Positions 7,561-39,915 of a stretch of DNA of 51,093 nt are shown here, in pieces. A program made the position numbers and the translations under genes. Source of the DNA: Elusimicrobiota bacterium (GTDB lineage Bacteria > Elusimicrobiota > Elusimicrobia > Elusimicrobiales > UBA9959); NCBI GenBank assembly GCA_030651035.1, contig JAUSCK010000042.1:1-51093 (forward strand), written 5' to 3'. The notes under the pieces are model-generated. The model had not been told where the DNA came from. It saw only the letters and a program-made list of their open reading frames with translations, and ran no database searches. Every line of letters starts with the position of its first letter. Position 1 is the stretch's first letter.

Positions 7561-7654
7561 ACCCGGTCTCACGCCGGCCCTGAACACAAATTATTGCCGC
7601 AAATATATATTTGTGCGGCTCAACAGCCTTAACCGTCCGGCTTTCACCGTATAA

Positions 7655-8815
7655 ATGGAACTATCCGAAGACCAGCAAAAGGCGCTTGTAAAGCTCCTGT
7701 CATGGTACAAAGGCCCCGGCAGGAACCGGTTCATTACCCTCGGCGGGTACGCGGGCACCGGCAAGACCACCCTCATCTCCATTTTCAAGAACGAACTGGC
7801 CAAGGCGGAGAAGGGAATTAAAATAGCTTTCTGCAGCTACACCGGCCGCGCCGCGCAGAACCTCAGGAACAAGCTGAAGGAGGCCGGCGCCCTGTGCGCC
7901 AGGGATTCCGTCAGCACCATCCACGGCCTTATCTATACGCCCAGGGAGGACTCCGGCGGGCAGATCGCGGGCTGGGAACGGAAGGACGAGCTGGAGCGCG
8001 ACCTGATCATTGTCGACGAGGCGTCCATGGTGGACGGGCTTATCTGGGGGGACCTGCTTTCTTACGACATACCGATAATAGCGGTCGGGGACCACGGCCA
8101 GCTCCCGCCGATCTCCGGGAAGTTCAATTTAATGGAAGCCCCGGAGATCTTATTGACGCAGATCCACCGGCAGGCCAAAGACAACCCGATAATCAAGGTT
8201 TCCGAATACGCCAGGACCACCGGGCTGGTGCCGGCGAAGAAATACGGGGCCGGCGTGGTGAAATATCTGAAGGAAGACTCCGACGCGCAGGAGAAGACGG
8301 CGGAACTGCTGGAGGCTTATTCAGCCGACACTTTGATCCTGTGCGGCTATAACTCGACGCGGACAAAAATAAATCAGTTCATCCGGGCCTCCCTGGGCTT
8401 TGAAACCCCGGCCCCGGCGCACGGCGACAGGGTTATCTGCCTGCGCAATAACCACGCGAAGGCCGTCTGCAACGGCATGCTGGGGACTATCCTGCACCTC
8501 GCGGCGGCCCGGAAAGACTGGTACAGCGCCGAGATTAAAATGGACGACCGCGAGAAGCCTTACGAGGGGCTTATCTACGCGCCGCAGTTCGGCGCCCGGA
8601 GCGGGATCAATTTCACGAAGGACAGGCAGCTGGCCGCCATGGGCGACCTTTTCGACTTCGGCTACGCCCTGACAGTCCATAAAGCCCAGGGCAGCCAGGC
8701 GAAAAGGGTGGTCATGTTCGAGGAGAGGTTCGCGCAGATGGACGACGAGATGTGGAGGCGCTGGCTGTATACCGGGGTCACCCGCGCCGAAGAGGAACTT
8801 TACCTTTTTGGCTAG
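7655..8815 (+). CDS. SF1B RecD/Dda-like ATP-dependent DNA helicase
   Basis: GYAGTGKTT, DEASM, GDHGQLPP, YALTVHKAQGS, LYTGVTRA. Confidence 0.88.
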   Translation: MELSEDQQKALVKLLSWYKGPGRNRFITLGGYAGTGKTTLISIFKNELAKAEKGIKIAFCSYTGRAAQNLRNKLKEAGALCARDSVSTIHGLIYTPREDSGGQIAGWERKDELERDLIIVDEASMVDGLIWGDLLSYDIPIIAVGDHGQLPPISGKFNLMEAPEILLTQIHRQAKDNPIIKVSEYARTTGLVPAKKYGAGVVKYLKEDSDAQEKTAELLEAYSADTLILCGYNSTRTKINQFIRASLGFETPAPAHGDRVICLRNNHAKAVCNGMLGTILHLAAARKDWYSAEIKMDDREKPYEGLIYAPQFGARSGINFTKDRQLAAMGDLFDFGYALTVHKAQGSQAKRVVMFEERFAQMDDEMWRRWLYTGVTRAEEELYLFG

Positions 8816-25700: not shown

Positions 25701-27119
25701 CTATTGTTCTTCAAACGCATCAACCGTATAAGTGTAAAGCTCGACTGTTTTGTCTTTCCAGGCGTCGGCGGAGAGCCCCGCTTTCTCAAGGCAAAGCGAG
25801 GAAAGAAAATCTTCTTTCTTTTTAAAGTGCTCCCAGACCTGCGGCAGGTAAGTGCCCGACCGGCGGCCGCTTTTAACGTAAACCCCGTGCACACCCGCCT
25901 TCACCGCTTCAGCGCCTTTGACAAGCTCCAGCGGAGAAAGGACCGAGATCTCTATTTTGATCTTCTTCAGCTCGGCCTCGGAGACCCGCTCGAACCTGGG
26001 GTCCTCGAAAGCCGCGGCCCCGGCGTAGGAGGCTGCCATGTCGGCAAGCGCGGTGCGCGGCTCAAGGCTGCCTATGCAGCCGCGCAGGCTGCCGCCCAGC
26101 GTAAGCGTGACGAAGATGGCGGCTGGCTGGTTAAATTCCGGCCTGGGGCTTAAAGGCTGTACCGGGATCTTGCCGGTTTTCAGGCAGGCGCCGATGCTGC
26201 TGCGCGCCAGGGCGAGCAGCTCGCTCTTCATGGCTGGCGATAATTCAAGCGCGCCGGCGGGCTTCGGCGAGACTTCGGTGAAATATCCCGCGCCGTAGCC
26301 GACCACGGCGCTGTCGTCGCCCGAGACCTTCCCCGAATGTGTATAAAGGCCCAGTTCAAAATCGTTGCAGCCAAGCTCGAGGGCGGCGGCGGCGCCGGCC
26401 GTCATGGCGGCCTGGCCGCAGGCGGTAGTATCAAGGTACTGCGAAGCTTTTGAAAGCAGCAGTGCGTTGGCCAGGTCGAAGTAGCCGGGGCTTGAATTGC
26501 GCATGGCCTGGCGCAGGGCCAGCAGCACGGAGCGGTCCGAAATCTCGGCTATTTTTCCCGGCGGGTAGTGTGACAGGTCGGAAGAAACACAGAACAGCGC
26601 CTTGCGCCCTCTCATGGCGCGGCCAATGGCGCGGCCGGCTTCTTCAAGCAGGGCGGCGTCAGTTGAATTAAACAGGAGGGGGACTATTTTAACGGCGCTC
26701 CCCTTAATGACCTGCAGGAAAGGCAGCTGGACTTCCACGGCATGCTCGGCCTCGTGCGCGCGGGGCAGGTTCTCGAATAGTTTTTTCTCCTTGAGGAGTT
26801 CGGCGCAGAAGGCGGAATCTATCTCGACCGCTCCGAGCGGGGTTTCGAAGGAGCCCTCGGCAAGCAGTGCCCCTTTCGCAAGGGACATAGTGTGGCCGGC
26901 GGCCATTATCACAAGCGTGTCAAAATGGAGATTTTTAAGCGGGGCGAAGGCGGCGCCGGCCGCGGCCCCGGAGAAAGCGTAGCCGGCGTGGGGGGACAGG
27001 AAGCCCGCCACGCGCCCGGCGGGAAGCACCCCGGGTTTAACAAAACCTGAAACCTCCGCGCGCAGTTCTTCAGGCCGCGCCTCATAAAAGCGCCCTGCAA
27101 CAGCTGGTTTTCTTATCAT
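25701..27119 (-). CDS. AmmeMemoRadiSam protein B (MEMO1-like) fused to protein A (AMMECR1-like)
   Basis: R.PAVAG.FY, PHAGY.FSG, EHAVEVQLPFLQ, SSDLSHY, VGY; then FVTL, LRGCIG, AFEDPRF, EISVLS, YLPQV. Confidence 0.92.
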   Translation of the reverse strand: MIRKPAVAGRFYEARPEELRAEVSGFVKPGVLPAGRVAGFLSPHAGYAFSGAAAGAAFAPLKNLHFDTLVIMAAGHTMSLAKGALLAEGSFETPLGAVEIDSAFCAELLKEKKLFENLPRAHEAEHAVEVQLPFLQVIKGSAVKIVPLLFNSTDAALLEEAGRAIGRAMRGRKALFCVSSDLSHYPPGKIAEISDRSVLLALRQAMRNSSPGYFDLANALLLSKASQYLDTTACGQAAMTAGAAAALELGCNDFELGLYTHSGKVSGDDSAVVGYGAGYFTEVSPKPAGALELSPAMKSELLALARSSIGACLKTGKIPVQPLSPRPEFNQPAAIFVTLTLGGSLRGCIGSLEPRTALADMAASYAGAAAFEDPRFERVSEAELKKIKIEISVLSPLELVKGAEAVKAGVHGVYVKSGRRSGTYLPQVWEHFKKKEDFLSSLCLEKAGLSADAWKDKTVELYTYTVDAFEEQ

Positions 27120-27184
27120 ATTAGCCCTCCCCGGCAATTATACATTTGTTTTATCGCCCCGAAAAAACTAAAATAGAGCTACAC

Positions 27185-27261
27185 GGTGGTTGTAGCTCAG
27201 TGGTTAGAGCGCTCGGCTGTGGCCCGAGAGGTCGGGGGTTCAAGTCCCCTCAGCCACCCCA
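27185..27261 (+). tRNA. tRNA-His(GTG)
   Basis: G-1 GTGGTTG acceptor, CTCGG-CTGTGGC-CCGAG anticodon arm, GGTTCAAGTCC, CAGCCACC-CCA. Confidence 0.96.
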
Positions 27262-27292
27262 AAATTTAAAAAACGCCTTTTCTCCCGTTAGT

Positions 27293-27344
27293 GGCCCGAT
27301 AAAGAAGGCTTCAGCGACAGAACGCGCCGTCCGGCGCGTTTTTT
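27293..27344 (+). repeat. cassette left-end motif plus terminator hairpin (copy 1)
   Basis: GGCCCGATAAAGAAGGCTTCA identical at 37143-37163; AACGCGCC-GTCC-GGCGCGTT-TTTT hairpin. Confidence 0.8.
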
Positions 27345-27465
27345 GTTTACTTGCATTTGCCAGAATGTAGCACTATTTGTATTATTAGTTTGGCGTAATG
27401 CACAGCAAAATAATGTACTTCATTATGCTTTGTGGCGTCAGGTTAGGGGAGCCGCGATTTCTTAT

Positions 27466-28395
27466 ATGCAAACAGCCTTCTGGGGGATTGCCTTCTCTTT
27501 ATTATTGCCCTTTAGTGTGCACGCCGCCTCGACACGGAACTTATATCTCGTCTTGATAACGCGTATGGGAACAGTTGAGAACCAGTTCTGTGCGGAACTC
27601 ATATCAGATAATGGGAGGTATCTGCTTAAAAGTGAGGCGCATAAGGACATAATATTAATCCCGGAAACACCCGGGGCAATCCTTTCATCTGGAAAATATT
27701 CAGTTACATTGGAACATCAGAACCTTAAAACCAGCACGCTACAGGTGACCGCGACCATACACGGCGACAGCATAAAACTACTCAGTAAGACCCCCGTGGA
27801 CATTCTATTGGTGCAGCAGAACTGCCTAGGGGAAACGCCAATGTCCAACGCATGGAATTCGCCTTTTAGCGGCAATAACGATTCTAACGCTAAAGCTTTT
27901 CTGCGACGCATCGTAGGCAAATTTGCGGATTTCCGGACTGGCGGGGGGGATGACGGGCATAGACACGCCGGAATAGACCTCAGGGGCGGATTCGGCAAAG
28001 AAGTATACCCCATTAATGACGGCAGGGTGCTAGCCGCCTCATTCAAAGATCTATCCGGTGGGGTAGTAATAGAACATCTCCTCCCTGACGGGAGCAGATT
28101 ATATTCAAAATATGTCCATATACAGGACATTTCCGTGAAGGCAGGGGAACAGGTTACGCCCCATACCAGGCTAGGCAGGCTTTTTGACAAAGCCTCGTTC
28201 AAAAAAAGCCGATACACGCACAACCACTTACATTTGGAAATCCGGAAAGATTACGAGGATAAAGGCACCGACAGCTCATATAGAGAAACTCGCAAAGATT
28301 TGGAAAGGCATTGCTTAGACCCTGAAAAATTCCTTGGGGCACTACTCACTAAGAAACTTGCGCATACGGAACAAGGCCCCGGCGTAAGTAACTGA
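27466..28395 (+). CDS. exported M23-family metallopeptidase
   Basis: signal peptide (VHA), HAGIDL, Y.H, V..G..V....LG, HLHLEIR. Confidence 0.85.
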   Translation: MQTAFWGIAFSLLLPFSVHAASTRNLYLVLITRMGTVENQFCAELISDNGRYLLKSEAHKDIILIPETPGAILSSGKYSVTLEHQNLKTSTLQVTATIHGDSIKLLSKTPVDILLVQQNCLGETPMSNAWNSPFSGNNDSNAKAFLRRIVGKFADFRTGGGDDGHRHAGIDLRGGFGKEVYPINDGRVLAASFKDLSGGVVIEHLLPDGSRLYSKYVHIQDISVKAGEQVTPHTRLGRLFDKASFKKSRYTHNHLHLEIRKDYEDKGTDSSYRETRKDLERHCLDPEKFLGALLTKKLAHTEQGPGVSN

Positions 28396-28397
28396 GA

Positions 28398-30086
28398 ATG
28401 AATTTTATCCTTCCATTCATGCTATCTGGTATCATTCTCGCTTTCAGCGGGGTCTTCTACCAGGCGTATTATATCCCCAAACTCCTGGTTCTTTTTATCG
28501 GCAGCCTTGCTTCAGCCGGCATTCTACTTCAGCAAGAGGAACTCCGCCTACCTGCACGCAGCACGGTTCTTTTCCTGGCTGGTTATTTATTAATGTTGGC
28601 CAGCATGGCCGGGTTCTCCGGAGAACCGCGACACGCTTACATACAATTACTATATGCCATCTGCGGTTGCGCGATGTATCTGGTCACAATTAACGCTAGT
28701 GATTGCCAGAAAACAACCGCACTTAAGTTCGCCTGTGGAATTGCACTAATACAGTGTTGTTTAACAACACTCCAGTCTGTCAATGCAGTGTCATTCCTGC
28801 CAAGCGTCCTGATCCCGGTAGAAGGCCGCCTAACCGGAACCGTCGGCAACCCGGAATTTCTTGCCACACTGCTAGGGGTGTCGATACTCATCGTTTTTCA
28901 TTTACGGGATAAATCCAAAAGCGAAAAAGTCCAGATATGGCTTGCCGCGGGGGCTGCGGCGCTTTTCTTCGGAATACTTGCCATTGGGAGCAAGGGAACA
29001 TTCCTTTACCTGGCTCTTTATGGCGTATGGCGTTTTAAACGCAGCTTTAAACTGATTGCCGCCGGAGCAATGACTTTTGTCCTTCTGATGTTACTGTTCT
29101 CTCCGGCATCGGTGTTGGGCCGTGTATTTCTTTGGTTGACCAGCCTACGCATGTTCATTATGAATCCTGTCACAGGAGTAGGCCTTGGGCAGTTCGAGAA
29201 CAATTACTTGCAAACCGTACACGGGTTCTTCTCATCTATGCCGGCTGTAGCGGGATATTTTGGAAGTTATACAAGTCTTACGCAGGATGCGCACAATATC
29301 TTCCTTCAGCAGGCAGCGGAACTGGGCCTGCCGGGGCTAGGCTTCTCGCTGCTATTCTCCATCTTTGTATTTAGACGCGCCCAAGCCTTAGGGGGACATC
29401 TTGGCGCTGCCTTGTTCCTATTGCTGTATAAGAGCATGTATACAGTAATGCTCAACTCTCCGACCAGCCTGCTGTTGCTGACGCTGCTCTTGGGCTTCTC
29501 CGAAAACCTAGGGCGTCTTAGATCCATAAAAGTCAAACCGATATGGACTACAGTTTTAATACCTGCTTTCTCAGCCCTAATTCTTGCCGGAACACACCTT
29601 TGCATAGCCGACTATCACTATCAGCGCGGACTCAAAGCCGTAATGATGGGTAATAGCGCCACCGCGAAAAAAGATTTTGTAGCTGCCATCGAAATAGACC
29701 CGGAAAGAGCCGATTTGTACTTGGCGTTAGCATATCTCGACTTTCTTGCCGGAAATACCGACGAGATGAGCTTGCGTATACAACAGGCACTTAAGCGTGG
29801 AAAGAGCATGGACACATACAAGATATCCGCGCACATGTTCTTTTATAGCCGCATTTACGGCAATGCAGAGAGAATATACCGTTACATACTCTTTCTTTTT
29901 CCTGAGCATCTTACATCTATGGCAAAACTCTCGGTTATCGCCATTGGAAAGGGCGATTACACACAGGCCGTATCGCTAGCAGAAAAGATTCTCGCATTAA
30001 AGCCCAGAAGGCCCAATGCTTCGGATATCAGGAACGCGCAGATCGCAAGCGAGATAGTACACAAATACGCCGGAGGTATAAAATGA
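28398..30086 (+). CDS. O-antigen ligase (Wzy_C)-family membrane protein with C-terminal TPR-like repeats
   Basis: GTVGNPEFLA, R..LW, GVGLGQF, AHNIFLQ..AELGL.G; many TM helices. Confidence 0.82.
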   Translation: MNFILPFMLSGIILAFSGVFYQAYYIPKLLVLFIGSLASAGILLQQEELRLPARSTVLFLAGYLLMLASMAGFSGEPRHAYIQLLYAICGCAMYLVTINASDCQKTTALKFACGIALIQCCLTTLQSVNAVSFLPSVLIPVEGRLTGTVGNPEFLATLLGVSILIVFHLRDKSKSEKVQIWLAAGAAALFFGILAIGSKGTFLYLALYGVWRFKRSFKLIAAGAMTFVLLMLLFSPASVLGRVFLWLTSLRMFIMNPVTGVGLGQFENNYLQTVHGFFSSMPAVAGYFGSYTSLTQDAHNIFLQQAAELGLPGLGFSLLFSIFVFRRAQALGGHLGAALFLLLYKSMYTVMLNSPTSLLLLTLLLGFSENLGRLRSIKVKPIWTTVLIPAFSALILAGTHLCIADYHYQRGLKAVMMGNSATAKKDFVAAIEIDPERADLYLALAYLDFLAGNTDEMSLRIQQALKRGKSMDTYKISAHMFFYSRIYGNAERIYRYILFLFPEHLTSMAKLSVIAIGKGDYTQAVSLAEKILALKPRRPNASDIRNAQIASEIVHKYAGGIK

Positions 30087-31225
30087 CACAAAAGACCGCC
30101 AACATAATCGCTGTCCTTGCAATAGTCGGCCTAGCCGCAGGTTATTACCTGGCTCAGTATCGCAAATCCGGCGCTGCACCGTTCCAGCCGGCTGTCGCGT
30201 CAACTACAGCCACCACCATAAGTCAGCCGTCAGCAGAAAAGACCGCGGGGACGGCCGGACCGCTTCCCTCCGGAGACAGTCTAAGCCTGATTAGCGGGGA
30301 AACCGCGAGTCAGACCGCAATGTCTGCCGAAGGGGAATTAGATAGACCCGAGGGAATGGAGTGGTTCTATAAACGTTTCGGAAACAGCACCTGGTTCGCG
30401 GAAGGAACCTTTAATGCAAAATCTTTTACCCCGCAAGAGTATGAAACCCTTATAGCCGCTGCCTTGCAAGGCAATGAGTCTGCGACTGTAGCTTTAAAGC
30501 TTTCAATCCTAAAGTATCTAATTGAAAATCCTAAAGACGCCGAATATAAAGCGGTAAAAGAGAAACTCTACTCAGAAGAATTCCTGAAGACAGTTCCGAG
30601 GTTTGAATATCTGGCCGAAATGCTGCCAGATGAACTGCTCGACAATAAAGATTTCGCCGCTGATATCCTTGCCAAGAACCCCTATAATCTGAAATTTTTT
30701 TCCGAACGGTTGCGCTCCGATAAAGAAATTGTGTCCAAGGTTATATCAAACAACATCTATCTGCTTGAGCTTGCCTCGGACGCCCTGCGCAACGATAAAG
30801 CCTTCATAAAGGAGCTGTTGTTGAAGGATCCGACTGCCCTTAGCTATATTTCAGACGAACTCAAGGGAGATAAGGACCTGGTATTACCGGTTCTTAAAGG
30901 TCACCCGGAACTTTATTCGGCTGCGTCCTCGAAAGTCCAGAACGATCCTGAAGTACTGCCGCTTATCCGTACATTTATCCTGACTGGGGGGCGTGGCAAT
31001 GTAAGTGCGCTTCCTGAAAAACTCCGGGGCGACAGGGAAGTGGTCATGAAAGCTGTGGAAAGCAATTGCAGCTTACTGGAATCCGCATCCGTGGAACTTC
31101 GCGACGACGAGGAAGTGGTAAGTAAGGCCATCGCGCATTCGCGATATTGCCTTCAGTACGCAAGCAGCAGGCTGCGGGAAAAGCTTAAACAGCCGGGGCA
31201 GACTGGGCAAGAGGAGGTGGAGTAA
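30083..31225 (+). CDS. membrane-anchored DUF4116-repeat protein
   Basis: N-terminal TM anchor; repeated L..AS..LR.D.E.V..A units. Confidence 0.75.
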   Translation: MTQKTANIIAVLAIVGLAAGYYLAQYRKSGAAPFQPAVASTTATTISQPSAEKTAGTAGPLPSGDSLSLISGETASQTAMSAEGELDRPEGMEWFYKRFGNSTWFAEGTFNAKSFTPQEYETLIAAALQGNESATVALKLSILKYLIENPKDAEYKAVKEKLYSEEFLKTVPRFEYLAEMLPDELLDNKDFAADILAKNPYNLKFFSERLRSDKEIVSKVISNNIYLLELASDALRNDKAFIKELLLKDPTALSYISDELKGDKDLVLPVLKGHPELYSAASSKVQNDPEVLPLIRTFILTGGRGNVSALPEKLRGDREVVMKAVESNCSLLESASVELRDDEEVVSKAIAHSRYCLQYASSRLREKLKQPGQTGQEEVE

Positions 31226-31274
31226 GAAGCCGCCGCTCAGATGAGCCGTTCCCGCATCAACTCTGGCACTTTAT

Positions 31275-32444
31275 ATGAAAAGGCATTGGAAGTATACTGA
31301 CATCCCCGACAGGCTGTGGCGTGATTGGAGATGGCAGCTAAAAAACCGTTTCCATAACGGCAGCGATATCTCTAAATTCTTCCCGAACATCAGCGAGGAA
31401 TCGCGGAGGGATTTCGCAGCTCATGTGGCCAAGTTCAATATCTCGATAACGCCTTATACGCTTTCCTTGATTCGCCTGGATAAAAAACTAAATCCGACAG
31501 CAGTCGATCCGATCTGGAGACAGTTTAAATTCTTGTCGCCAGACGAACTTCGCGGCGACGGCGCTTATGACGGGGTTCACACCAACTGGGAACTTTCAAA
31601 GGAGATGCCTACCCCGATACTGCACCACAAGTATCCCGGAAGAGCGCTGCTGCGTGTAGTCAACAGCTGCCATGGGTACTGCAGCTACTGCTACCTGACG
31701 AAGCGCACCCTGGACGTTTCGAAGAAATTGCGTTTTGCCGCCTCTCCAGCAGTGTGGGAAAGGTCTCTTCGCTACCTGCGCGCCAATCCGGACATATCCG
31801 ACGTCCTGATAAGCGGCGGCGACCCCCTTCTGCTGCCGAATGACGCGCTGGAGAAGATCCTCAGCGACGTTGCCGCCGTAAGCTCCGTCAAGACTATCAG
31901 GATCAACACCAGGGCATTGACCTTTAACCCCTTCCGTGTGGACCCAGGGCTTGCCGCCATACTAAAAAAACACCGGGTGACAGTTCTTGAGATACACTTG
32001 GCCCACCCCAACGAGATTACACGGGAATTCGACTCCGCGCTGGAAGTCTTAGACAAAGGTGGATACAGGCCTCTCATACTCTGGCGATCCCCTCTGCTCA
32101 GGGGGATAAACGATTCCGTAGCGACGCTGAGGGAACTGCTGCTCATGCTTTATGCCCGCCGGATCGTGCCCTACTATCTCTTTCATAACGCCCCGTACAG
32201 CCTTGGACGGGAGTATTACGGCACCTCCGTAAAGCGCGGGATAACACTGATGAAGGAACTGCGCCGGGTGATCCCCGGGCCAAGTTTTCCGCGCTACACG
32301 CTTTTTCATCCTACCGGAAAGCAGGACATCCCGCTGGAGGCAGGTGGCACTCCGGAATTCCGCTTCTGCCGCGACGCCTCAGGAAAGCCCGCGGTAAAGT
32401 TCCGCAATTGGAGAGGCCGGTCAGTATTCTACCCGGACCGCTGA
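31275..32444 (+). CDS. KamA-family radical SAM / PLP aminomutase, divergent
   Basis: W.DW.WQL.NR, HKYP.R.L, CHGYCSYC, ISGGDPL, HPNEIT, LLRGIND, PYYLF, PTGK (PLP Lys). Confidence 0.88.
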   Translation: MKRHWKYTDIPDRLWRDWRWQLKNRFHNGSDISKFFPNISEESRRDFAAHVAKFNISITPYTLSLIRLDKKLNPTAVDPIWRQFKFLSPDELRGDGAYDGVHTNWELSKEMPTPILHHKYPGRALLRVVNSCHGYCSYCYLTKRTLDVSKKLRFAASPAVWERSLRYLRANPDISDVLISGGDPLLLPNDALEKILSDVAAVSSVKTIRINTRALTFNPFRVDPGLAAILKKHRVTVLEIHLAHPNEITREFDSALEVLDKGGYRPLILWRSPLLRGINDSVATLRELLLMLYARRIVPYYLFHNAPYSLGREYYGTSVKRGITLMKELRRVIPGPSFPRYTLFHPTGKQDIPLEAGGTPEFRFCRDASGKPAVKFRNWRGRSVFYPDR

Positions 32445-32447
32445 AGC

Positions 32448-34379
32448 ATGCCATATATCTGCAAGAATCCTTGGACAACGCTGTATATTTGGGGCAACGG
32501 GAATGTAACCCATTGCTGCTATTCCAACGTCGGCAGCCTTGGGAACATAAACGAAACGCCTTTATTGGATATTTGGCGTGGCCCTAAACTGAATTTTGTC
32601 CGTGAGAACATGGCACAGGGGAACTACCTGCAGGCCGGCTGCGAATATTTCTGCCGCTCATACCGCTGGAATAAGTTTTATGGTTCCAAAAACACGGCTG
32701 CGATCCCGGAAGGACTTGGCAGGGTTGAAGAACTGCCTCCCGCCTGGGCCGAGGACGGGCCCGGTATCCTGGGCTTCGGGATCGACTGGGATTGCAACTT
32801 GAGATGCCGCCATTGTTTATCGTCGAGAAAAGGCAAGGGAGTAAAACAAGAAGATTTCCACACTCTCCGGACTTTTACAGAGAAAAGCCGTTTTTTGCGT
32901 TTCATGGGCGGGGAATTCACGATTAACAAAGACTGCCTTTCTATGCTTAAAGAATTGGGGACGTGGGAAGCCCAGCCCATAGTTTTTTTCAGCACCAACG
33001 GACAGACACCGATAGCGTCCGTTATGCCGTATTGCGGCGGATTAAAAGGGTTGCACCTAAAGTTTTCACTGGAAGGATTGAACAGTGATTATGAACACAT
33101 ACGCACCGGAGCGTCATGGGATGTTTTCGAGCGCAACCTGGATGAGGCAGCGGCCATTTTTGTGGCCAAGCGCGCGGAGGGGAAGGACTGGCGTCTATAT
33201 CTTAACTTCTGTGTGATGAAGAGCAATTTCCGGAATCTGCCGTCCATTATTCAATACGCCGTCAAAAAAGACCTCCCGCTGGTTCTCAATACCATAAACG
33301 GGATGCGCCATATAGATGAGAATATGTTCATGTACTCCGCCGCCTGTCTTCCAAAAGAAGAAATACAACAAATTGCCGAACGTTGCAGGGCAATCCTGGG
33401 AGAAGCCCGCCAATATTGCTTTAAGAACGAACTCGTCACGCATCTGGATTATATTCTTCGTTCCGCCAATGACAAAAAACTCAGGTTGCCACACCGAGCC
33501 TTACAGTTGTGGACACTTTTTGTTAAAGGCCGCGCGGCGGACCTCTCAATGTACGCTTTCTATAGGCTCTCAATGAACCCAACCGCATTTTTATCCTATG
33601 TCTATAGGAAGATACGGGGTAAAATATCCACCCCGGCAATCAGATTCAAGACCGCGCGGAGGATCATTGCAAACACCGAGGATATTTTAAGGGGTTGGGC
33701 ATGGAATTACTCAGTAACTAAAGCAGGAAACCAGGAGGCGAACGAATTCCGGCACCGGATAGGCGAATTTCAATTGCCCATAAAGGAGCGGGGAGAACTG
33801 GGCGTTGAGAACAAGAACCGTATCTCAAATATGCGGCTGGCCTGCGAGGCTATTGATATGTTGGTATTACAGCCGGGACAGATCTTTTCGATGCGGAAGG
33901 TGATCGGTGAACCAGTAGCCCAGAAAGGATATAAACCGGGCCCCGTTATCATCAGAGGCAAACTATCCAGCTCGGTTGGCGGCGGTCTGTGCCAGATATC
34001 AACAGTGCTCTTCAACGCAGCCCTGCAGGCGAATATACGCATACTTGAAAAACACAATCACAGCGTGGACTTGTGGGGGAAAGACCGGATAGTTGAGCTT
34101 GGACGGGACGCGGCGTACACCTATGAACTGAAAGACCTGAAGTTCAGAAACGATATGGCGGCGCCGGTACTGATCCGTATTTCAGCTGACGGGGGGAAGA
34201 AACTGGTTTGTGCCGAATTGTATTGCAGCAGCCCCCTAGCCGGCGAGGTAACGGTAGAAACCCTGGCGGACGCTAAGCCGGGAGAGGTTAAACACATAGA
34301 AACACGAAGATTTATAAGAACTAACGGAAAGACGGAGTTGACCTATTCCCGGCGGGAAACATATCTTTCCCGCAGTTGA
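32448..34379 (+). CDS. SPASM-like + radical SAM + VanW-domain fusion protein
   Basis: C..PW....I...G.V..CC....GNI.....IW; CNLRCRHC, GGE, STNG; C-terminal GGGLCQISTVLFNAAL, HS, GRDA, DLKFRN. Confidence 0.8.
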   Translation: MPYICKNPWTTLYIWGNGNVTHCCYSNVGSLGNINETPLLDIWRGPKLNFVRENMAQGNYLQAGCEYFCRSYRWNKFYGSKNTAAIPEGLGRVEELPPAWAEDGPGILGFGIDWDCNLRCRHCLSSRKGKGVKQEDFHTLRTFTEKSRFLRFMGGEFTINKDCLSMLKELGTWEAQPIVFFSTNGQTPIASVMPYCGGLKGLHLKFSLEGLNSDYEHIRTGASWDVFERNLDEAAAIFVAKRAEGKDWRLYLNFCVMKSNFRNLPSIIQYAVKKDLPLVLNTINGMRHIDENMFMYSAACLPKEEIQQIAERCRAILGEARQYCFKNELVTHLDYILRSANDKKLRLPHRALQLWTLFVKGRAADLSMYAFYRLSMNPTAFLSYVYRKIRGKISTPAIRFKTARRIIANTEDILRGWAWNYSVTKAGNQEANEFRHRIGEFQLPIKERGELGVENKNRISNMRLACEAIDMLVLQPGQIFSMRKVIGEPVAQKGYKPGPVIIRGKLSSSVGGGLCQISTVLFNAALQANIRILEKHNHSVDLWGKDRIVELGRDAAYTYELKDLKFRNDMAAPVLIRISADGGKKLVCAELYCSSPLAGEVTVETLADAKPGEVKHIETRRFIRTNGKTELTYSRRETYLSRS

Positions 34380-34383
34380 TATC

Positions 34384-35448
34384 GTGCAGGAGAACTTTGT
34401 GCGCAAAATAACAAATATTGGCATCGTGCTGGAGACCAAGGCGGATGCGCTGAAAACAGGACTGCCGCTGGATCAGTTATACCATTGGCGGGAGCCGGGG
34501 GAAATAGCCGCGATAACCGGGGCAATAAAAGAACTCGGCTTTACCACAGTCATCCTTGGCACTCCGGAAGATCTGGCGGCACATCCCGTAAGCGGAGTAG
34601 ATTTCATCTTCAATCTTTCAGTAGGCTTCGTTAATCGCTATCGCCTGGCGGCGGGTCCTGCCCTCTATTCGTTGTTAAAACTTCCCTATTCCGGCGCCGA
34701 CCCGTACACGAAAATGATGAGCCAGCATAAGCACGCCATGAAGTCCTTCTGGGACAAGCTGGGCATTCCTACCCCTGAATGGGCATACATTCATACGCCG
34801 GGCGACGTGAGAGCCGCCTCACTTCCGCCGTTCCCGCTTATCCTCAAACCGGCATACGAAGGCTCCTCAATAGGGATAGATGAAAGTTCTGTAATCCATT
34901 CCAGGAAAAGTCTGCTGACAAAGGCGGAGGAGCTCTTTTCCCGCCTTAAAATGCCAATGATTGTTGAGCGGTTTATCGCCGGCCGCGAATGCAAGGTAGG
35001 AATCATCGGGAACGCTGAAACAGAGTTTTCCGGCATCATCGAGGATATCTGCGCCGATGGTAGTGGACTTGGAAAGGAGATGCTCGGCTTCCGCGTCAAA
35101 AAAGCGGGGACATACTCAAAACGGACCCTTATCGCCGGAGATGCTCTTTCGAAACGCATCATGAAGGACGCGAAAAGGATTTATGAACTGTTCCGGCCTG
35201 TAGACTACGGGACCATGGACGTGCGCGTGGACAACCGGGGATGCCATTACTTTTTGGAGTTCAACGCCGACGCGACTCTGCATCCGCAAAGGACGCTGGC
35301 ACAATGCTGCGCCTTGAACGGGGTAGATTACAGGACGATGATCGGAAAAATCCTTACAACATCCTTTAAACGGTGGGGGATCAAGCAACAGCTACCTAGG
35401 ATTAAATCCGAGGGAGCGCATCACACGGACAAATCGCGCCGGGCCTGA
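34384..35448 (+). CDS. D-alanine--D-alanine ligase-like ATP-grasp enzyme
   Basis: PYSGAD, K..MK, IPTP, PLILKP..EGSSIGI, VERFI.GRE, D.R.D....FLE.N. Confidence 0.82.
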   Translation: MQENFVRKITNIGIVLETKADALKTGLPLDQLYHWREPGEIAAITGAIKELGFTTVILGTPEDLAAHPVSGVDFIFNLSVGFVNRYRLAAGPALYSLLKLPYSGADPYTKMMSQHKHAMKSFWDKLGIPTPEWAYIHTPGDVRAASLPPFPLILKPAYEGSSIGIDESSVIHSRKSLLTKAEELFSRLKMPMIVERFIAGRECKVGIIGNAETEFSGIIEDICADGSGLGKEMLGFRVKKAGTYSKRTLIAGDALSKRIMKDAKRIYELFRPVDYGTMDVRVDNRGCHYFLEFNADATLHPQRTLAQCCALNGVDYRTMIGKILTTSFKRWGIKQQLPRIKSEGAHHTDKSRRA

Positions 35449-36543
35449 CAGGGCAAGTGCCCGGCTTGAGAACTCAAAACGGCGCAGATAGCGTTTACGA
35501 AAAGCGGTAAACGCCGCGCCCGCAGTGGGGACTTTCACTACTTCCAACTTAAATTCAGCCGAATCTTTTTCAATATCATATATCCTCCGAACAGCACCGT
35601 GAAGAACGCTGTAAAGCGTCTCTCCGGGCGAACGCACGCAGGGAAGAGGCGCGCGTCGGAGAATCGACGGATTCCAAACAGAGGGTATCCCGAAATGAGC
35701 GCATACTGCGGCGTAGATCATACAGACTGCGGCGAGCCTGGCTTCCTGAGACAGCCCGGCTACATGTGGGGTGCTGATATCGGCCAGCTCCACCAACCCA
35801 GGGTCTATGTCCGGCTCATTCTCCCAAACGTCGATGACCGCACCACCGAGCCGTCCGGACTCGAGACATTCCTTAAGTGAGCGTTCGCAGACTATCCCAC
35901 CTCTAGCGGAATTAATGATAACGGCCCCGCGTTTAAGCCCGGCCAGCCTCTCCGCACCAAACAGACCCGCGGTCTTGTCTTTACCAGTAAAGGTCAGCGG
36001 CGTATGTATTGTTATAACATCGGAATCCATCAATTTGGATAGTGGCCTGAAGGACTTATCACCGGTAGTTCTGCGCTTCGGGGGATCGTTCAGCAGGACA
36101 TTTATTCCCAAAGTTTTCGCCTTTTCCGCTACCCGGCTGCCGACATTCCCTATTCCGACAACGCCTAACGTGGCCTCAGGGATGCTTATGCGGCCCCGCT
36201 CATGAAGGGACAAGAGCGCCGCAATCACATACTCTGCTACCGATTCCGCGTTACTGCCTGGTGCGGCAGAGAAAGCGATTTCTTGGTCCTTTAAATACCG
36301 GAGGTCGATATGGTCCGTACCGGCTGAAACCGTTCCGACGAACTTTATCCTGCTTCCGGCTAAAAGTTTTTTATCGACGCGCGTCACATACCGTACTATC
36401 AGGATATCGCAATTCTTTACCGTCGCAGCAGTGATTTCGCCGCTTTCAAGCAGCCGCAACCGGCCGATTCCCTTGAAAGCGTTATAGACATGAGGGATAT
36501 TCATGTCCGCAATTACCTGTAGGATTGGTCTATGTCTTCGCAT
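35392..36543 (-). CDS. pdxB: 4-phosphoerythronate dehydrogenase-like (PdxB family D-2-hydroxyacid dehydrogenase)
   Basis: AD.NIP, FVGT..AGTDHID, APG.NA.SVAEY, GVVG.GNVG, IN..RG, DVWENEP, TPH.AG, PdxB-type C-terminal tail. Confidence 0.75.
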   Translation of the reverse strand: MRRHRPILQVIADMNIPHVYNAFKGIGRLRLLESGEITAATVKNCDILIVRYVTRVDKKLLAGSRIKFVGTVSAGTDHIDLRYLKDQEIAFSAAPGSNAESVAEYVIAALLSLHERGRISIPEATLGVVGIGNVGSRVAEKAKTLGINVLLNDPPKRRTTGDKSFRPLSKLMDSDVITIHTPLTFTGKDKTAGLFGAERLAGLKRGAVIINSARGGIVCERSLKECLESGRLGGAVIDVWENEPDIDPGLVELADISTPHVAGLSQEARLAAVCMIYAAVCAHFGIPSVWNPSILRRAPLPCVRSPGETLYSVLHGAVRRIYDIEKDSAEFKLEVVKVPTAGAAFTAFRKRYLRRFEFSSRALALSGPARFVRVMRSLGFNPR

Positions 36544-36802
36544 CGTTAATCAAAAAATAGCAGTGTTATTCCAAACTTTCCCGACTACAAATCAATTTTA
36601 ACTCTTTTCATTCTTGAAGGATATAAAATTGGGTGGCTCATTACGCTGTATCATAAATGGGCGGGGACAGATAAGCCAGGCCAGGGCGGGTGCGGCGGCT
36701 ATCCCGAGGCAAGACGCTACCGCCCTGGCCTTTCCATATTTTCTTAGCAGGTTCCGCCTCACCCGGCGGCTACAAATTAATAACAGGAAAGACCGCCGCG
36801 GA

Positions 36803-37069
36803 GGCCGCAGCAGCGGACGCCGGGGCGGTGTTTTATAATTTTATGGTGCCACCGGTGTCAGTTAAAATAGATAACAGCAACAAGCCCGCGCCGCGAGAGG
36901 CAGCAGCCACTGGCGAGCGCGGACAGAGTCTGTAATGATAACAGTTCGATTCTTTGCAGCGTGCGCGGGGAATAATTTTCTGCTTTGTTTAAGCCCGGGA
37001 CTCCTTCGCTACAATGTTTCCTCTGGATGTTGGGTGAAGCAGGTTCGCAATTCGGCCTGGAAGGCACCC
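36803..37069. repeat. cassette right-end repeat (copy 1)
   Basis: 37/38 identity over 36803-36840 vs 38617-38654; 33/34 identity over 37036-37069 vs 38783-38816; middle block also aligns. Confidence 0.9.
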
Positions 37070-37142
37070 CAAATTTCGAGTTTCCTGTTTTTCCCCGAGG
37101 CGGCCGCTGCCGCAGAATTAAATTTCCGCAAAACCTATTACG

Positions 37143-37193
37143 GGCCCGATAAAGAAGGCTTCAAAAATAAGGCACGCCTAATGGCGCGTTTTT
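37143..37193 (+). repeat. cassette left-end motif plus terminator hairpin (copy 2)
   Basis: GGCCCGATAAAGAAGGCTTCA, then GGCACGCC-TAAT-GGCGCGTT-TTT. Confidence 0.8.
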
Positions 37194-37223
37194 AATTTTT
37201 CCGGCAACCGCTAGATACCGTCC

Positions 37224-37252
37224 TTGACAACTAAAACGGATAAAGATAGTAT
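37224..37252 (+). promoter_or_regulatory. putative sigma70 promoter of the cassette 2 gene
   Basis: TTGACA-17 bp-TAGTAT, followed by AGGAG RBS and ATG 37280. Confidence 0.55.
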
Positions 37253-37279
37253 CCCTTTTGTCATGGCAGGAGAAGAGAA

Positions 37280-38482
37280 ATGAGAATTGTAATACGCTTG
37301 TTTTCAGCAATAGCGGCTGCGGCATTATGCCAGGCGCTCCTCTGCGCCGAGGCCAGGGCGGGCGAGCTGGACGTACGCATGGTGAAGGTAGTAAAGACCT
37401 TTACACGCTCAGCCGCGGAAACGGGGCTCAGCACCGCCACGCTGGCAGTTATGCCGTTCAAGACGGACAAGAAGCTGGCGGAGAAACGGGTGGACTACGC
37501 CTGCGGCGAGATCCTGACCAACAAGTTCGTAGTGACCCATACGTTCAAAGTGGTGGAGAGGGCGCAACTGGATACCGTCTTGAAGGAACAGGCCCTGGGA
37601 GCCGGCGGCGTTACCGAAAGCGCCACGGCGGCGAAACTGGGCAAGCTGCTTGGCGCCAGGCTGGTGATAATCGGCAGTGTCTCGCGGCTGGGCGATTCCT
37701 ACCACCTTAGCACGGAAATGGTGGACGCTGAAAGCGGGGAAATACTGGCTTCCGACGTTACCGAAGTAGAGACCGCAACTTTCGACGAAGACGCCGGCAG
37801 ATACCTCGTTCTTGTGCCTAATACGCAGGCTATAGGTATGTACCTGGCGGGCTTTTCGGCCCCGGTAAGAATGTCCGTACCGGCGCCGTTCACCGCTCCG
37901 GGCGGAAAGGTAGTAACTCCTTTGAAGAGTTCCATGAACCTGCTGGGAATAGGCGGCGGCGTGCGCTATTCCCCGTGGACCTCCTGGACAATGGACCTGA
38001 TGATCCTGGCTCATCTTGAGATCTCGCCGGACGCGGCTGCGTTCTCGGTGAATTCAACCGAACCGAGAGCGCTAACCGCCTGGCGGGCGGACGGCCCCAG
38101 CGCCAGGTTCACGGTCAACAAGACTTTCGCGCTTTCCAGGAAGTTCTCTTTATTCACCGGGGCCGGGGCAACCATGTTTAGCCTGAACAACAAGAATACT
38201 ACCGACAGCGGGTCCAATGATTTCGACTATGACGACGGCACCTTGAAAATAAAAATGGACCAGATGAAAGGTTCCGAGATCACGCCCACGGTCCGCGTCG
38301 GCCTAGAATGGCGCCCCAAAGAACGGTTCGGGATCTCCCTGTTCGGGAACTACGACCTTTCCCCCAAGACGATCAAGGAGACCGCGACAGTCCTCTGGAC
38401 GGGCCACCAGGAGACCGTAACGATGCGCAAGATAACGTTCCCGCGCTTCTACCCGGACGCGTCCATGTCGCTGTATTTCTAG
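37280..38482 (+). CDS. CsgG/HfaB/FlgO-like domain fused to probable outer-membrane beta-barrel
   Basis: signal peptide; AV.PF, F.VVER.QL..VL.EQ, A.KLGKLLGA..VI.GSV, VD.E.GEIL; amphipathic strands ending in terminal SLYF. Confidence 0.78.
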   Translation: MRIVIRLFSAIAAAALCQALLCAEARAGELDVRMVKVVKTFTRSAAETGLSTATLAVMPFKTDKKLAEKRVDYACGEILTNKFVVTHTFKVVERAQLDTVLKEQALGAGGVTESATAAKLGKLLGARLVIIGSVSRLGDSYHLSTEMVDAESGEILASDVTEVETATFDEDAGRYLVLVPNTQAIGMYLAGFSAPVRMSVPAPFTAPGGKVVTPLKSSMNLLGIGGGVRYSPWTSWTMDLMILAHLEISPDAAAFSVNSTEPRALTAWRADGPSARFTVNKTFALSRKFSLFTGAGATMFSLNNKNTTDSGSNDFDYDDGTLKIKMDQMKGSEITPTVRVGLEWRPKERFGISLFGNYDLSPKTIKETATVLWTGHQETVTMRKITFPRFYPDASMSLYF

Positions 38483-38616
38483 CGCCGCAGACATTGACCC
38501 CGGAAGTCAGTTTTCAGCTGCAGGCGGACGGCAACAGTTTTAATTGCAAAGACATCTTCAACACACTGGGTATTAATCTTCAGATAGGCAATAAGGCGGA
38601 CCAGGGCGTGGGCAGC

Positions 38617-38816
38617 GGCCGCAGCAGCGGACGCCGGGGTGGTGTTTTATAATTATACGGTGCCACCGCAACAACACATAAGATTGATAACAGCTCGATT
38701 CTTTGCAGCGCGCGCGGGGAATAATTTCTGCTTTGTTTAGTGCGGGACACCTTTGCTAAACCGGATCTTCAGGATGTTGAGCGAAGCAGGTTCGCAATTC
38801 GGCCTGTAAGGCACCC
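38617..38816. repeat. cassette right-end repeat (copy 2)
   Basis: aligns with 36803-37069 apart from a ~65-bp indel. Confidence 0.9.
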
Positions 38817-38833
38817 TTCCCCTTTATAGTCTT

Positions 38834-38868
38834 TATAAAACCCTCGATTAACCTTCGTGGGTTTTATA
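38834..38868 (+). terminator. hairpin just beyond the last CACCC core, possibly the displaced native tRNA-His terminator
   Basis: TATAAAACCC-tCGA-ttaacct-TCGt-GGGTTTTATA. Confidence 0.55.
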
Positions 38869-38969
38869 TTGGCAAACCCTCATTCCACTGGTTGTAAGTT
38901 TTGTAAAATAACTTCTTACACACCGCAATTCCAGGTGGCCTGGTTTATCGGGAGAGGGTCACCGGCGGC

Positions 38970-39716
38970 ATGAACATGGAAACCTTTAAAAACATATTAA
39001 TTATGTTCGGCGCGATCTTCATCCCGCTGGCTACCATAGGCGTCGGGCTCGGCTGGTATTACGCTGAAGGCAGCCCGGCGCTTGTGGGCCAGACACTACT
39101 CCTCCTGCTTGCGGTGGTATTTGCGCTGAAAAGAAACTTCGCCGCAATGGGCCTTTACCTGGCCGGTATTCTGTTCCTTATGGTGGTGTATCCAAAACTG
39201 GAAGATTTCGAATCTTATGCCAGGGAGGGCCGGATGGCAGGGCAGTTCAGCGAGCTTCGTTCGCGCCTTGCCGGTATAAAAACGGCCGATGGGTCATATC
39301 CAGGCACTATCACCCAGGTTCCGCCGCCGCTCAAATTGAGGAGCGGGCACAAGAACACTTCCGCCATAGATACGGTGCGGCTGCCGGACGAGGCCTATCT
39401 TTACCCTCCGCAAATACCGGCCGGAGAAAAGCTGCGGGTAACCCTCAGGCAGGAGGGCACGAACCGGGAACAAAGCTACACCTGGAGCGGAGATAACAAG
39501 CAGCCGCTCCTGCTGTACCCTGGCGGAACTTATTTTTACGAGATCCGCCGCGAAAGCCCGGCCGCGCTAGTTTCCAGCGGCACAGTGAAGGTGCCGGTGC
39601 CGCCTGACTTTAACGTCGACAGCGGCAAATACGCATACGACCGGACCCATGGGCACTTTTTCATTAACTGCACCCACACAGGGAAGCAGCAAAGGGCTCC
39701 CTGGTGGGAGCGTTAG
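38970..39716 (+). CDS. membrane protein with GspG/pilin-like C-terminal domain
   Basis: 3 TM helices; LR......G.YP, GH..T, DSG.Y.Y, G....NCTH motifs shared with 46603..47250. Confidence 0.6.
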   Translation: MNMETFKNILIMFGAIFIPLATIGVGLGWYYAEGSPALVGQTLLLLLAVVFALKRNFAAMGLYLAGILFLMVVYPKLEDFESYAREGRMAGQFSELRSRLAGIKTADGSYPGTITQVPPPLKLRSGHKNTSAIDTVRLPDEAYLYPPQIPAGEKLRVTLRQEGTNREQSYTWSGDNKQPLLLYPGGTYFYEIRRESPAALVSSGTVKVPVPPDFNVDSGKYAYDRTHGHFFINCTHTGKQQRAPWWER

Positions 39717-39915
39717 CGCCGGACTTTTATTGATCTGCCTGGAGCAGGCAGCCATTGCGAGTCCCGCGCATGGGGACCTGCGGCCTGTGAACTGCAGCCC
39801 GCGCTATATCATATGCGGTGCGCGAAATTGATTCTTTACGGCTCATTTGCCATAATCTGCTTATGTCTCTAATGATAGTAAGCCCCGTCGCCGGCGAACG
39901 CCAGGTTTCGATATA

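Follow-up and report, generated by a model that had tools for sequence, protein, structure and literature searches.

A recurrent gene module of KamA-like aminomutase, VanW and Ddl-fold ligase in an Elusimicrobiota bacterium: comparison with van operons and a possible role in envelope precursor synthesis

Introduction

Ever since the vanB and vanG operons were first described, vanW has been an unexplained accessory gene within them. In the vanB operon of the Enterococcus faecalis plasmid pMG2200 (gene order vanY-vanW-vanH-vanB), VanW-B is a protein of 275 amino acids with a maximal hydropathy of 1.12, and its gene lies between vanY-B and vanH-B/vanB. Only in 2024 was the VanW domain recognised as the catalytic domain of L,D-transpeptidases, which works through a Cys-His-Asp triad (PMC11348318). 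The present analysis deals with a DNA stretch of 51,093 nucleotides (hereafter the window) from an Elusimicrobiota bacterium (assembly GCA_030651035.1, contig JAUSCK010000042.1), which represents one contig of a 4.47-Mb metagenome-assembled genome (MAG) with 96% completeness and has Elusimicrobia MAGs as its closest named relatives. The window carries a cassette of seven genes, among them genes for an aminomutase-like enzyme of the KamA family, a radical S-adenosylmethionine (SAM) enzyme fused to VanW, a Ddl-fold ligase and a PdxB-like dehydrogenase, and the core of this cassette recurs in about nine independent lineages.

The cassette had been compared to van clusters in an earlier reading made from the sequence alone, and this analogy is apt, as a hydroxyacid enzyme, a Ddl-type ligase and a short soluble VanW are common to both. 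With the vanB operon in particular, the module shares an enzyme of the D-isomer 2-hydroxyacid dehydrogenase family, a ligase of the Ddl family and a short VanW (about 275 amino acids in VanW-B) without a hydrophobic segment; both are found on mobile DNA, and in both VanW is encoded upstream of the ligase. In contrast to the vanB operon, the module is devoid of VanX, VanY and VanRS, its ligase scores far below the Van cut-offs, its dehydrogenase is of the PdxB type or gives way to a LarA-type racemase, and it adds a KamA-like aminomutase and an N-twitch radical SAM enzyme. Pfam and NCBIfam scans detected neither VanX/VanY nor VanRS domains, be it in the cassette of the window or at the distant loci.

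Genes of the cassette

Genes were called from a listing of open reading frames (ORFs) together with Pfam and NCBIfam profile scans. The cassette consists of the following features:

27343-28395 (likely start ATG at 27466), plus strand: M23 metallopeptidase, predicted to be secreted (PF01551, E=1.5e-13)
28398-30086, plus strand: Wzy_C/O-antigen-ligase-like polytopic membrane protein with C-terminal TPR (PF04932, 31.7 bits, at the cut-off)
30083-31225, plus strand: membrane-anchored DUF4116 repeat protein (PF13475, E=3.7e-38 over 4 stretches)
31275-32444, plus strand: 2,3-aminomutase-like enzyme of the KamA family, pyridoxal phosphate (PLP)/radical SAM type (match to 2A5H, E=5.7e-52)
32448-34379, plus strand: fusion of twitch domain, radical SAM and VanW (VanW PF04294, E=1.2e-39; N_Twi_rSAM, 110.5 bits)
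32448-33647, plus strand: N-twitch radical SAM domain of the fusion, residues 1-400 (CxxxCxxC and N-terminal cysteines)
33648-34379, plus strand: VanW portion of the fusion (residues 401-643), which corresponds to an entire short VanW protein (PF04294)
34384-35448, plus strand: Ddl-fold ATP-grasp ligase (Dala_Dala_lig_C, E=1.8e-18)
35392-36543, minus strand: D-2-hydroxyacid dehydrogenase of the PdxB family (PdxB model 348 bits against a cut-off of 434; DUF3410)

The domain matches with strong E-values argue that these seven ORFs did not arise by chance, and all seven genes named in the sequence-only reading are present at the positions it had given. Its description of a tightly spaced run with a convergent PdxB-like dehydrogenase was likewise borne out: the gaps between the six plus-strand genes amount to 3, -4, 50, 3 and 4 nt, and the PdxB-like gene runs convergently to the ligase gene with an overlap of 57 nt. 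The same reading had proposed a fusion of a SPASM domain, radical SAM and VanW. The fusion is real, whereas the iron-sulphur element taken for SPASM is an N-terminal domain of the twitch type, located before the radical SAM core and not after it. The KamA-like, fusion and ligase proteins contain no hydrophobic segments and are therefore predicted to be soluble and cytoplasmic.

Recurrence of the module in other lineages

The DNA around genes of the radical SAM family was compared with the window proteins by tblastn. As these loci were fetched by means of a radical SAM query, they are biased towards modules that contain this gene and give no measure of how often it is present. A search with the fusion protein among 5.8 billion proteins yielded three further fusion clusters (90, 85 and 65% identical) and 30 stand-alone radical SAM proteins of about 400 amino acids with 41-59% identity over the radical SAM part. 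Genes for the KamA-like enzyme, the radical SAM enzyme, VanW and the ligase occur together in the distant loci L021, L022, L023, L027/L029 and L033 with 42-57% identity, and the gene order is shuffled among them into at least four arrangements. L026 and L028, both short contigs, carry part of the module. Two Brevinematales genomes have the radical SAM gene on its own (L013, L014), with KamA-like enzyme, VanW and ligase encoded together at separate loci (L051, L052). Every radical SAM locus with enough flanking sequence has the module adjacent or elsewhere in the same genome.

In all 15 loci that show both genes, the one for VanW immediately precedes that for the ligase on the same strand; these loci represent about nine independent lineages. 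Co-occurrence was additionally estimated by a proxy, the matching of the "longest contig" values reported for the ligase, KamA-like and radical SAM clusters, which gives lower bounds: 45 ligase clusters are on contigs of 5 kb or more, and of these at least 27 share a contig with a KamA-like cluster and at least 11 with a radical SAM cluster. In our reading, the common core comprises KamA-like enzyme, VanW, ligase and hydroxyacid enzyme, and the radical SAM enzyme is a dedicated partner in a subset of modules.

The genes that had been proposed to form one pathway thus co-occur elsewhere, in about nine lineages and at 42-57% identity, contrary to the lack of co-occurrence that the sequence-only reading had named as a refutation. 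It is the core that recurs; the M23, Wzy_C and DUF4116-type additions were seen only in the window clade and L023. Named relatives belong to Elusimicrobia, Brevinematales/Spirochaetes and WOR-3. The components are familiar and the module is real and conserved; the sequence-only reading knew of no described cluster with this combination, and none was found described in open-access papers or on bioRxiv. The context table of the LarA superfamily (PMC7583248, supplement 2), searched by keyword, does not include this module, and its only "MoaA" entry there is COG2896, in the head-row-81 block.

The hydroxyacid enzyme

A hydroxyacid enzyme was found in eight of the nine lineages with enough flanking sequence, L023 being the only one with neither type. 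The PdxB-like neighbour occurs in the window clade and in L021, and the two proteins are 43% identical to each other. LarA-like proteins are encoded within or beside the core in L022, L027, L029, L033, L030 and L051, and the neighbour in L052 is a different 2-hydroxyacid dehydrogenase of the D-isomer type, whose gene converges on that of the ligase, an arrangement also seen in the window.

Among 30 other genomes of the genus, 29 have PdxJ and only two (G017 and G327) have DUF3410/PdxB-like proteins; both of these carry the whole module. A direct protein search detected the PdxB-like gene in none of 15 other genus genomes. The possibility that it is a core gene of the genus was rejected on both counts (0/15 by protein search, 2/30 by DUF3410). 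In the window genome, PdxA and PdxJ are present, and PdxS and LarA were not found. Since the convergent dehydrogenase tracks the module and not PdxJ within the genus, and since a racemase or another 2-hydroxyacid dehydrogenase takes the equivalent slot elsewhere, it belongs to the module and travels with it, as had been suggested when it was counted as part of the unit. The PdxB-like enzyme and the LarA-type racemase may thus share one functional slot, the supply of a D-2-hydroxy acid.

The PdxB-like protein belongs to the PdxB family over its whole length, with residues 9-380 matching 2o4c at E=6.7e-72 and a DUF3410 match of 33.1 bits, and it scores below the NCBIfam equivalog cut-off for PdxB (348 vs 434 bits). 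On the vanH_gen model it reaches 92.6 bits against a cut-off of 540; it is a 2-Hacid_dh family protein of the PdxB type whose gene adjoins that of the ligase.

Five LarA-like proteins of other loci were compared in detail:

L022, 4515-5774: LarA-like protein
L029, 6841-8154: LarA-like protein
L033, 8666-9901: LarA-like protein
L051, 4776-6023: LarA-like protein
L030, 159-1244: LarA-like protein

The LarA superfamily consists of nickel-pincer 2-hydroxyacid racemases, and the members nearest to the module proteins are the malate racemases Mar1 and Mar2; the residue positions used here are those of PMC7583248. The cofactor-binding and catalytic His positions are common to both groups: the equivalents of D72, R75, H108, H174, K184 and H200 are kept in all five module proteins. 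The module proteins differ by an A-F loop in place of Y-K after the catalytic His, by Ser at the position of Mar2 K351 and by Arg at that of the catalytic K298 (5/5 each). The characterised LarA homologues all have the catalytic Lys at the K298 position. All five score below every NCBIfam LarAH cut-off, with malate racemase as the best match. Despite this match, malate is an unlikely substrate because both basic residues of Mar2, K173 and K351, are replaced by F and S in 5/5, and malate as the hydroxy acid was rejected as unsupported. Judged by these residues, the module LarA-like proteins look like an undescribed LarA subgroup.

VanW and the Ddl-fold ligase

In an alignment that included VanW-B and other VanW proteins, C515 (in GGGLCQ), H538 and D563 of the VanW part are invariant and D554 is nearly so, which leaves D563 and D554 as two candidates for the Asp of the triad. 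Where VanW is a separate protein in the module, it has 231-275 amino acids, a maximal 19-residue hydropathy of no more than 1.22 and no hydrophobic segment, an architecture like that of VanW-B; a longer YoaR-like VanW has an N-terminal hydrophobic segment (1.62). The module VanW therefore appears to be cytoplasmic, and the fusion is the sole VanW of the window genome. A VanW domain with conserved Cys, His and Asp is common to the module proteins and to Ldt4 and Ldt5 of Clostridioides difficile, which PMC11348318 describes as membrane-anchored with extracellular PG4 and G5 domains. The module VanW, by contrast, has no anchor, signal, PG4 or G5 domain and is fused here to a cytoplasmic iron-sulphur enzyme.

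The ligase was modelled by AlphaFold2 (AF2) with a mean predicted local distance difference test (pLDDT) of 89.3, and the top Foldseek matches were all Ddl (E down to 1.5e-21, TM 0.72/0.82, 18-21% identity). It has the three-domain fold, the ATP-grasp motifs and the invariant N-terminal Glu (E17) in common with Ddl, and it differs by invariants of its own, H34, R36, E40, R85, R87, D106, Y108 and H300. It reaches 79.4-83.3 bits on Ddl models with cut-offs of 243-246 and at most 35 bits on D-Ala-D-Lac/D-Ala-D-Ser models with cut-offs of 495-775. A canonical housekeeping Ddl is encoded on contig C34 (318.8 bits), so that the cassette ligase is a separate paralogue. Its clade is discrete, with 83 clusters and the next matches falling to 31% identity, and source names within it include Bacillota, WOR-3, Goldiibacteriota and the cultured Acetivibrio cellulolyticus, whose ligase is 51% identical. 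A complex prediction for ligase and VanW gave a score of 0.00 against a mark of 0.32, which carries no weight either way on binding.

The KamA-like and radical SAM enzymes

The KamA-like protein aligns with lysine 2,3-aminomutase (2A5H) and with the KamA family, including EpmB and the glutamate and arginine 2,3-aminomutases, and has the CxxxCxxC motif, the SGGD/E motif and the PLP lysine in common with them; C132, C136 and C139 as well as the PLP lysine K349 (in GK) are kept in nine of nine members. It differs at the positions of 2A5H D293 and D330, the aspartates that hold the epsilon-amine of lysine. In 9/9 members these are A/P and F/H, and a family-specific Arg follows in an LGR motif (LSR in one of the nine). 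The protein lies below all NCBIfam equivalog cut-offs, with 215/525 bits for the lysine, 200/650 for the glutamate and 186/600 for the arginine enzyme, and below the KamA subfamily cut-off (180 vs 199 bits). Since both lysine-binding aspartates are replaced throughout, the substrate would be non-basic, probably neutral or hydrophobic.

Just upstream of the KamA-like gene, close relatives and the distant L021 encode a protein of about 350 amino acids with a weak PP-loop signature (matches to QueC and asparagine synthase, E 1e-4 to 1e-6), located at 4567-5637 in L012, about 5334-6299 in L018, about 7867-8784 in L019 and 7751-8809 in L021. The window lacks this protein, with no more than 50 nt between its DUF4116 and KamA-like genes.

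In the radical SAM part, the CxxxCxxC cysteines (C116, C120, C123) and the N-terminal C23, C24, C65 and C69 are invariant in 34 sequences, and C5 is conserved in at least 90%. A Cys-rich twitch-type domain N-terminal to the radical SAM core is found in both the module protein and the N_Twi_rSAM family (NCBIfam NF033640); the module protein reaches 110.5 bits against the cut-off of 170 and forms a small family of its own, with 33 clusters among the 5.8 billion proteins, which appears to be dedicated to the module. The AF2 model of the core has block-mean pLDDT values above 90 for most of residues 131-350. A fold search with the fusion matched only generic radical SAM cores (BlsE, MoaA, SuiB, SkfB, anSME and viperin, E of about 1e-6), and assigning a function from these matches was rejected for this reason. 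The search gave no match for the VanW part, which is poorly modelled (pLDDT <50 at residues 535-561).

Envelope genes beside the module

The M23 protein keeps both zinc motifs, HxxxD (H-A-G-I-D) and HxH, and has a signal-like N-terminus; by tblastn, the alignment with its relatives begins at about residue 34 of the long ORF. Nine hydrophobic segments were counted in the Wzy_C protein, which also matches TPR families and gives a weak match to TIGR03097. The DUF4116 protein has a single N-terminal hydrophobic segment at residues 5-23, which forms the anchor. DUF4116 genes differ in number and length among near-identical cassettes of close relatives: L018 carries a second paralogue at 4046-5263 (47% identical) and L020 a longer version at 7513-8787 (59% identical).

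Genes for M23 protein, Wzy_C/TPR protein and an anchored protein form a tight run with the radical SAM gene both in the window clade and in L023, a distant locus, at identities of 34%, 32% and about 40% (over a short stretch), respectively; the Wzy_C homologue of L023, at 32% identity, is in the equivalent position. Other envelope genes are found elsewhere: an Amidase_3/AMIN protein is encoded upstream of the module in L027/L029, and in L033 a flippase gene of the Polysacc_synt/MurJ-like type reaches into the start of the KamA-like gene.

Genomic setting and signs of acquisition

The cassette follows a tRNA gene and a boundary repeat:

27186-27261, plus strand: tRNA-His(GTG), the insertion point of the cassette array (ARAGORN; Rfam 68.3 bits)
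27288-27348, plus strand: 61-nt boundary repeat with a terminator-like hairpin (repeat family D3; second copy at 37138-37198, 74% identical)

The two copies of the 61-nt repeat enclose the seven cassette genes, and a terminator-like site (27319-27342) lies inside the first. An Rfam scan of 26500-40000 found nothing besides the tRNA-His. The GC content of the cassette is 0.507, compared with 0.594 upstream and 0.616 from 39916 on. In seven loci of relatives (L038-L044), the tRNA-His also adjoins an AmmeMemo gene, and the DNA after the tRNA is unrelated to the window; save for one small-ORF match, none of the downstream genes of the window follows the tRNA-His there. In this genus, the site after the tRNA-His thus appears to be a hypervariable hot spot.

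The fusion protein was found in one of 24 other genus genomes (G017) and the ligase in none of 300 other phylum genomes at E<=1e-60. Together with the low GC content and the position after the tRNA, these counts argue that the cassette is accessory and probably acquired, in agreement with the proposal from the sequence alone of a mobile pathway. No integrase or recombinase domain was detected among the ORFs of at least 80 amino acids scanned between 27343 and 39716. The boundary repeats lie downstream of the tRNA-His and are not copies of its 3' end, which is not the arrangement of an integrase-borne island.

Genes near the module in other loci include IS110-family transposases (L012, 15517-16593; L027, 657-1820; L029, 605-1774) and an ArdC-like anti-restriction/zincin gene (L021, 6777-7586), neighbours which fit horizontal spread.

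Further observations concern the flanks of the cassette. A segment of about 400 bp at 36798-37198 is repeated 1.75-1.8 kb downstream at 38612-38816 (families D1, D2, D4 and D5, 81-95% identical), and its end overlaps the 61-nt boundary element (D3) that also comes after the tRNA-His. These repeats look like the junctions of stacked cassettes. Two small ORFs within the repeat, 36690-36935 and 36935-37195, are probably not genes. The next cassette encodes a CsgG/LpoB-like lipoprotein and a membrane protein without family match (37280-38482 and 38970-39716), and a CsgG-like paralogue with 36% identity is located on contig C301 of the same genome (L010). Upstream, on the minus strand at 25701-27137, lies a gene for a fused AmmeMemoRadiSam system protein, comprising B (Memo-like) and A (AMMECR1). 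Most genomes of the genus have two AmmeMemo paralogues, of about 75% and about 45% identity, and in many MAGs of the genus the contig stops within about 2 kb of the AmmeMemo/tRNA-His pair.

Proposed pathway and alternative explanations

Taken together, the cassette might encode a van-like pathway that has spread horizontally and operates in the cytoplasm, where it would assemble a (depsi)peptide unit from a beta-amino acid and a hydroxy acid for delivery to an envelope precursor. To this tentative reading, the best we can offer, we give a little less than an even chance. The KamA-like enzyme would turn a neutral or hydrophobic alpha-amino acid into its beta-isomer, and the PdxB-like dehydrogenase, or elsewhere a LarA-type racemase or another 2-hydroxyacid dehydrogenase, would supply a D-2-hydroxy acid. 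The Ddl-fold ligase would then couple two small acids via an acyl-phosphate to an amide or, as in VanA/VanB, to an ester. The Cys-His-Asp triad of VanW could take the acyl group, either from the ligase product or from a stem peptide, as a thioester and hand it to an acceptor amine of a precursor that is linked to a lipid or a nucleotide. Tailoring of the substrate or the product would fall to the N-twitch radical SAM enzyme, which is fused to VanW here. Three further proteins of this lineage may handle the product outside the membrane: the secreted M23 endopeptidase, the anchored DUF4116 protein and the Wzy_C/TPR protein.

In a bolder version, which we regard as speculative and clearly unlikely, ligase and transpeptidase would form a relay that works without ribosome or nonribosomal peptide synthetase: the ligase would make a beta-aminoacyl-D-2-hydroxyacid ester akin to D-Ala-D-Lac, this ester would serve as activated donor for the cytoplasmic VanW, the hydroxy acid would be released for reuse, and the beta-amino acid would be grafted onto a lipid-linked envelope precursor. 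Among natural 2,3-aminomutases, the KamA-like enzyme would then be the first to act on a neutral or hydrophobic amino acid.

Several points weigh against a pathway for an envelope precursor. The chemistry of its steps is deduced from family membership. By hidden Markov model alignment, the catalytic arginine of Ddl (R255 of the Escherichia coli enzyme) has no match in the ligase, so that the chemistry of the latter may differ from that of Ddl. The cytoplasmic location would separate VanW from mature peptidoglycan, its only demonstrated substrate, and the radical SAM enzyme is not universal to the module. No envelope gene stands beside the module in L021, L022, L051 and L052, and no Mur ligase, VanX/VanY or carrier protein was found in the module. 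Two members of the KamA-like clade, P0204 (55%) and P0269 (43%), bear the source names of Theionarchaea and Nanoarchaeota MAGs, groups that are devoid of murein. Finally, as the PdxB-like protein matches PdxB over its full length, a role in vitamin B6 synthesis remains a candidate, and plain supply of the vitamin for the PLP-dependent aminomutase could explain its gene.

Some of these points would also suit a soluble small molecule, such as a dipeptide, depsipeptide or oligomer of beta-amino and hydroxy acids used as solute, signal or antibiotic. VanW would in that case be a cytoplasmic acyl-transferase or oligomerase, and the envelope genes would merely lie nearby or help in export. The core enzymes are all predicted to be soluble and cytoplasmic, envelope genes are lacking near the module in four lineages, the module is accessory and patchily distributed, and archaeal members may exist. 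KamA-family enzymes are known to feed osmolytes and antibiotics (N-epsilon-acetyl-beta-lysine, blasticidin S and streptothricin), and the top radical SAM fold match, weak and generic as it is, was BlsE of blasticidin S biosynthesis. We nevertheless consider a small molecule rather unlikely. Envelope genes occur in three unrelated contexts, two of them operon-tight (the M23-Wzy_C-anchor-radical SAM run of L023 and the flippase/KamA overlap of L033), the closest characterised relatives, Ddl and VanW-type L,D-transpeptidases, act on peptidoglycan peptides, and neither an exporter nor a regulator is conserved in the core. Three component families in common with the vanB operon and the mobile accessory context (IS110 in L012 and L027/L029, ArdC-like gene in L021) could also point to a van-type resistance cassette that replaces the D-Ala-D-Ala end against glycopeptide-like or lipid II-binding antibiotics. 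This is very unlikely, as both the VanX/VanY dipeptidase and the VanRS sensor are absent, the ligase reaches no more than 35 bits on the D-Ala-D-Lac/D-Ala-D-Ser models, and aminomutase and radical SAM enzyme have no role in known van chemistry. Moreover, the relatives, Elusimicrobia, Brevinematales/Spirochaetes and WOR-3, are phyla with an outer membrane, which large glycopeptides reach poorly.

A modification of proteins or peptides, be it beta-aminoacylation in the manner of the beta-lysylation of elongation factor P (EF-P) or radical SAM tailoring like that of ribosomally synthesised and post-translationally modified peptides (RiPPs), is given a very small chance. EpmB is an enzyme of the KamA family, to whose model TIGR03821 the KamA-like protein matches with 146 bits, below the cut-off, and two RiPP maturases, SuiB and SkfB, are among the closest folds of the radical SAM part. 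In contrast, clustering of ORFs of at least 70 amino acids revealed no small ORF or precursor family conserved across the loci, the core genes of the window are separated by only 3-50 nt, and neither an EpmA-like nor an RRE domain was found in the Pfam and NCBIfam scans. It is hardly probable at all that the cassette is not one system, with the PdxB-like gene as an ordinary vitamin B6 gene and M23, Wzy_C and DUF4116 as an unrelated envelope operon on the same island. The full-length match to true PdxB in a genome with PdxA and PdxJ would agree with such a mixture, as would the absence of M23, Wzy_C and DUF4116 from most distant module loci. Against it speak the tracking of the module by the PdxB-like gene (2/30 vs 29/30 genus genomes for PdxJ), the LarA-like protein or other 2-hydroxyacid dehydrogenase in the equivalent place elsewhere, and the M23-Wzy_C-anchor run, which is again contiguous with the radical SAM gene in L023 at 32-40% identity.

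Implications

A short and apparently cytoplasmic VanW is tied to a Ddl-type ligase and a D-hydroxyacid-supplying enzyme across several phyla. As this adjacency is locked in a pathway separate from the van operons, the partnership of VanW, ligase and hydroxyacid enzyme becomes directly testable. If the relay between ligase and VanW proved true, the same logic would explain why VanW stands beside VanH and the ligase in the vanB and vanG operons.

The module probably holds three new enzyme specificities: that of a KamA protein without the lysine-binding aspartates, that of a LarA subgroup in which Arg replaces the catalytic Lys and that of a Ddl-fold clade of 83 clusters. Should the product of the proposed envelope precursor pathway enter the cell wall or a surface polymer, it would represent a new envelope modification in poorly known anaerobes.

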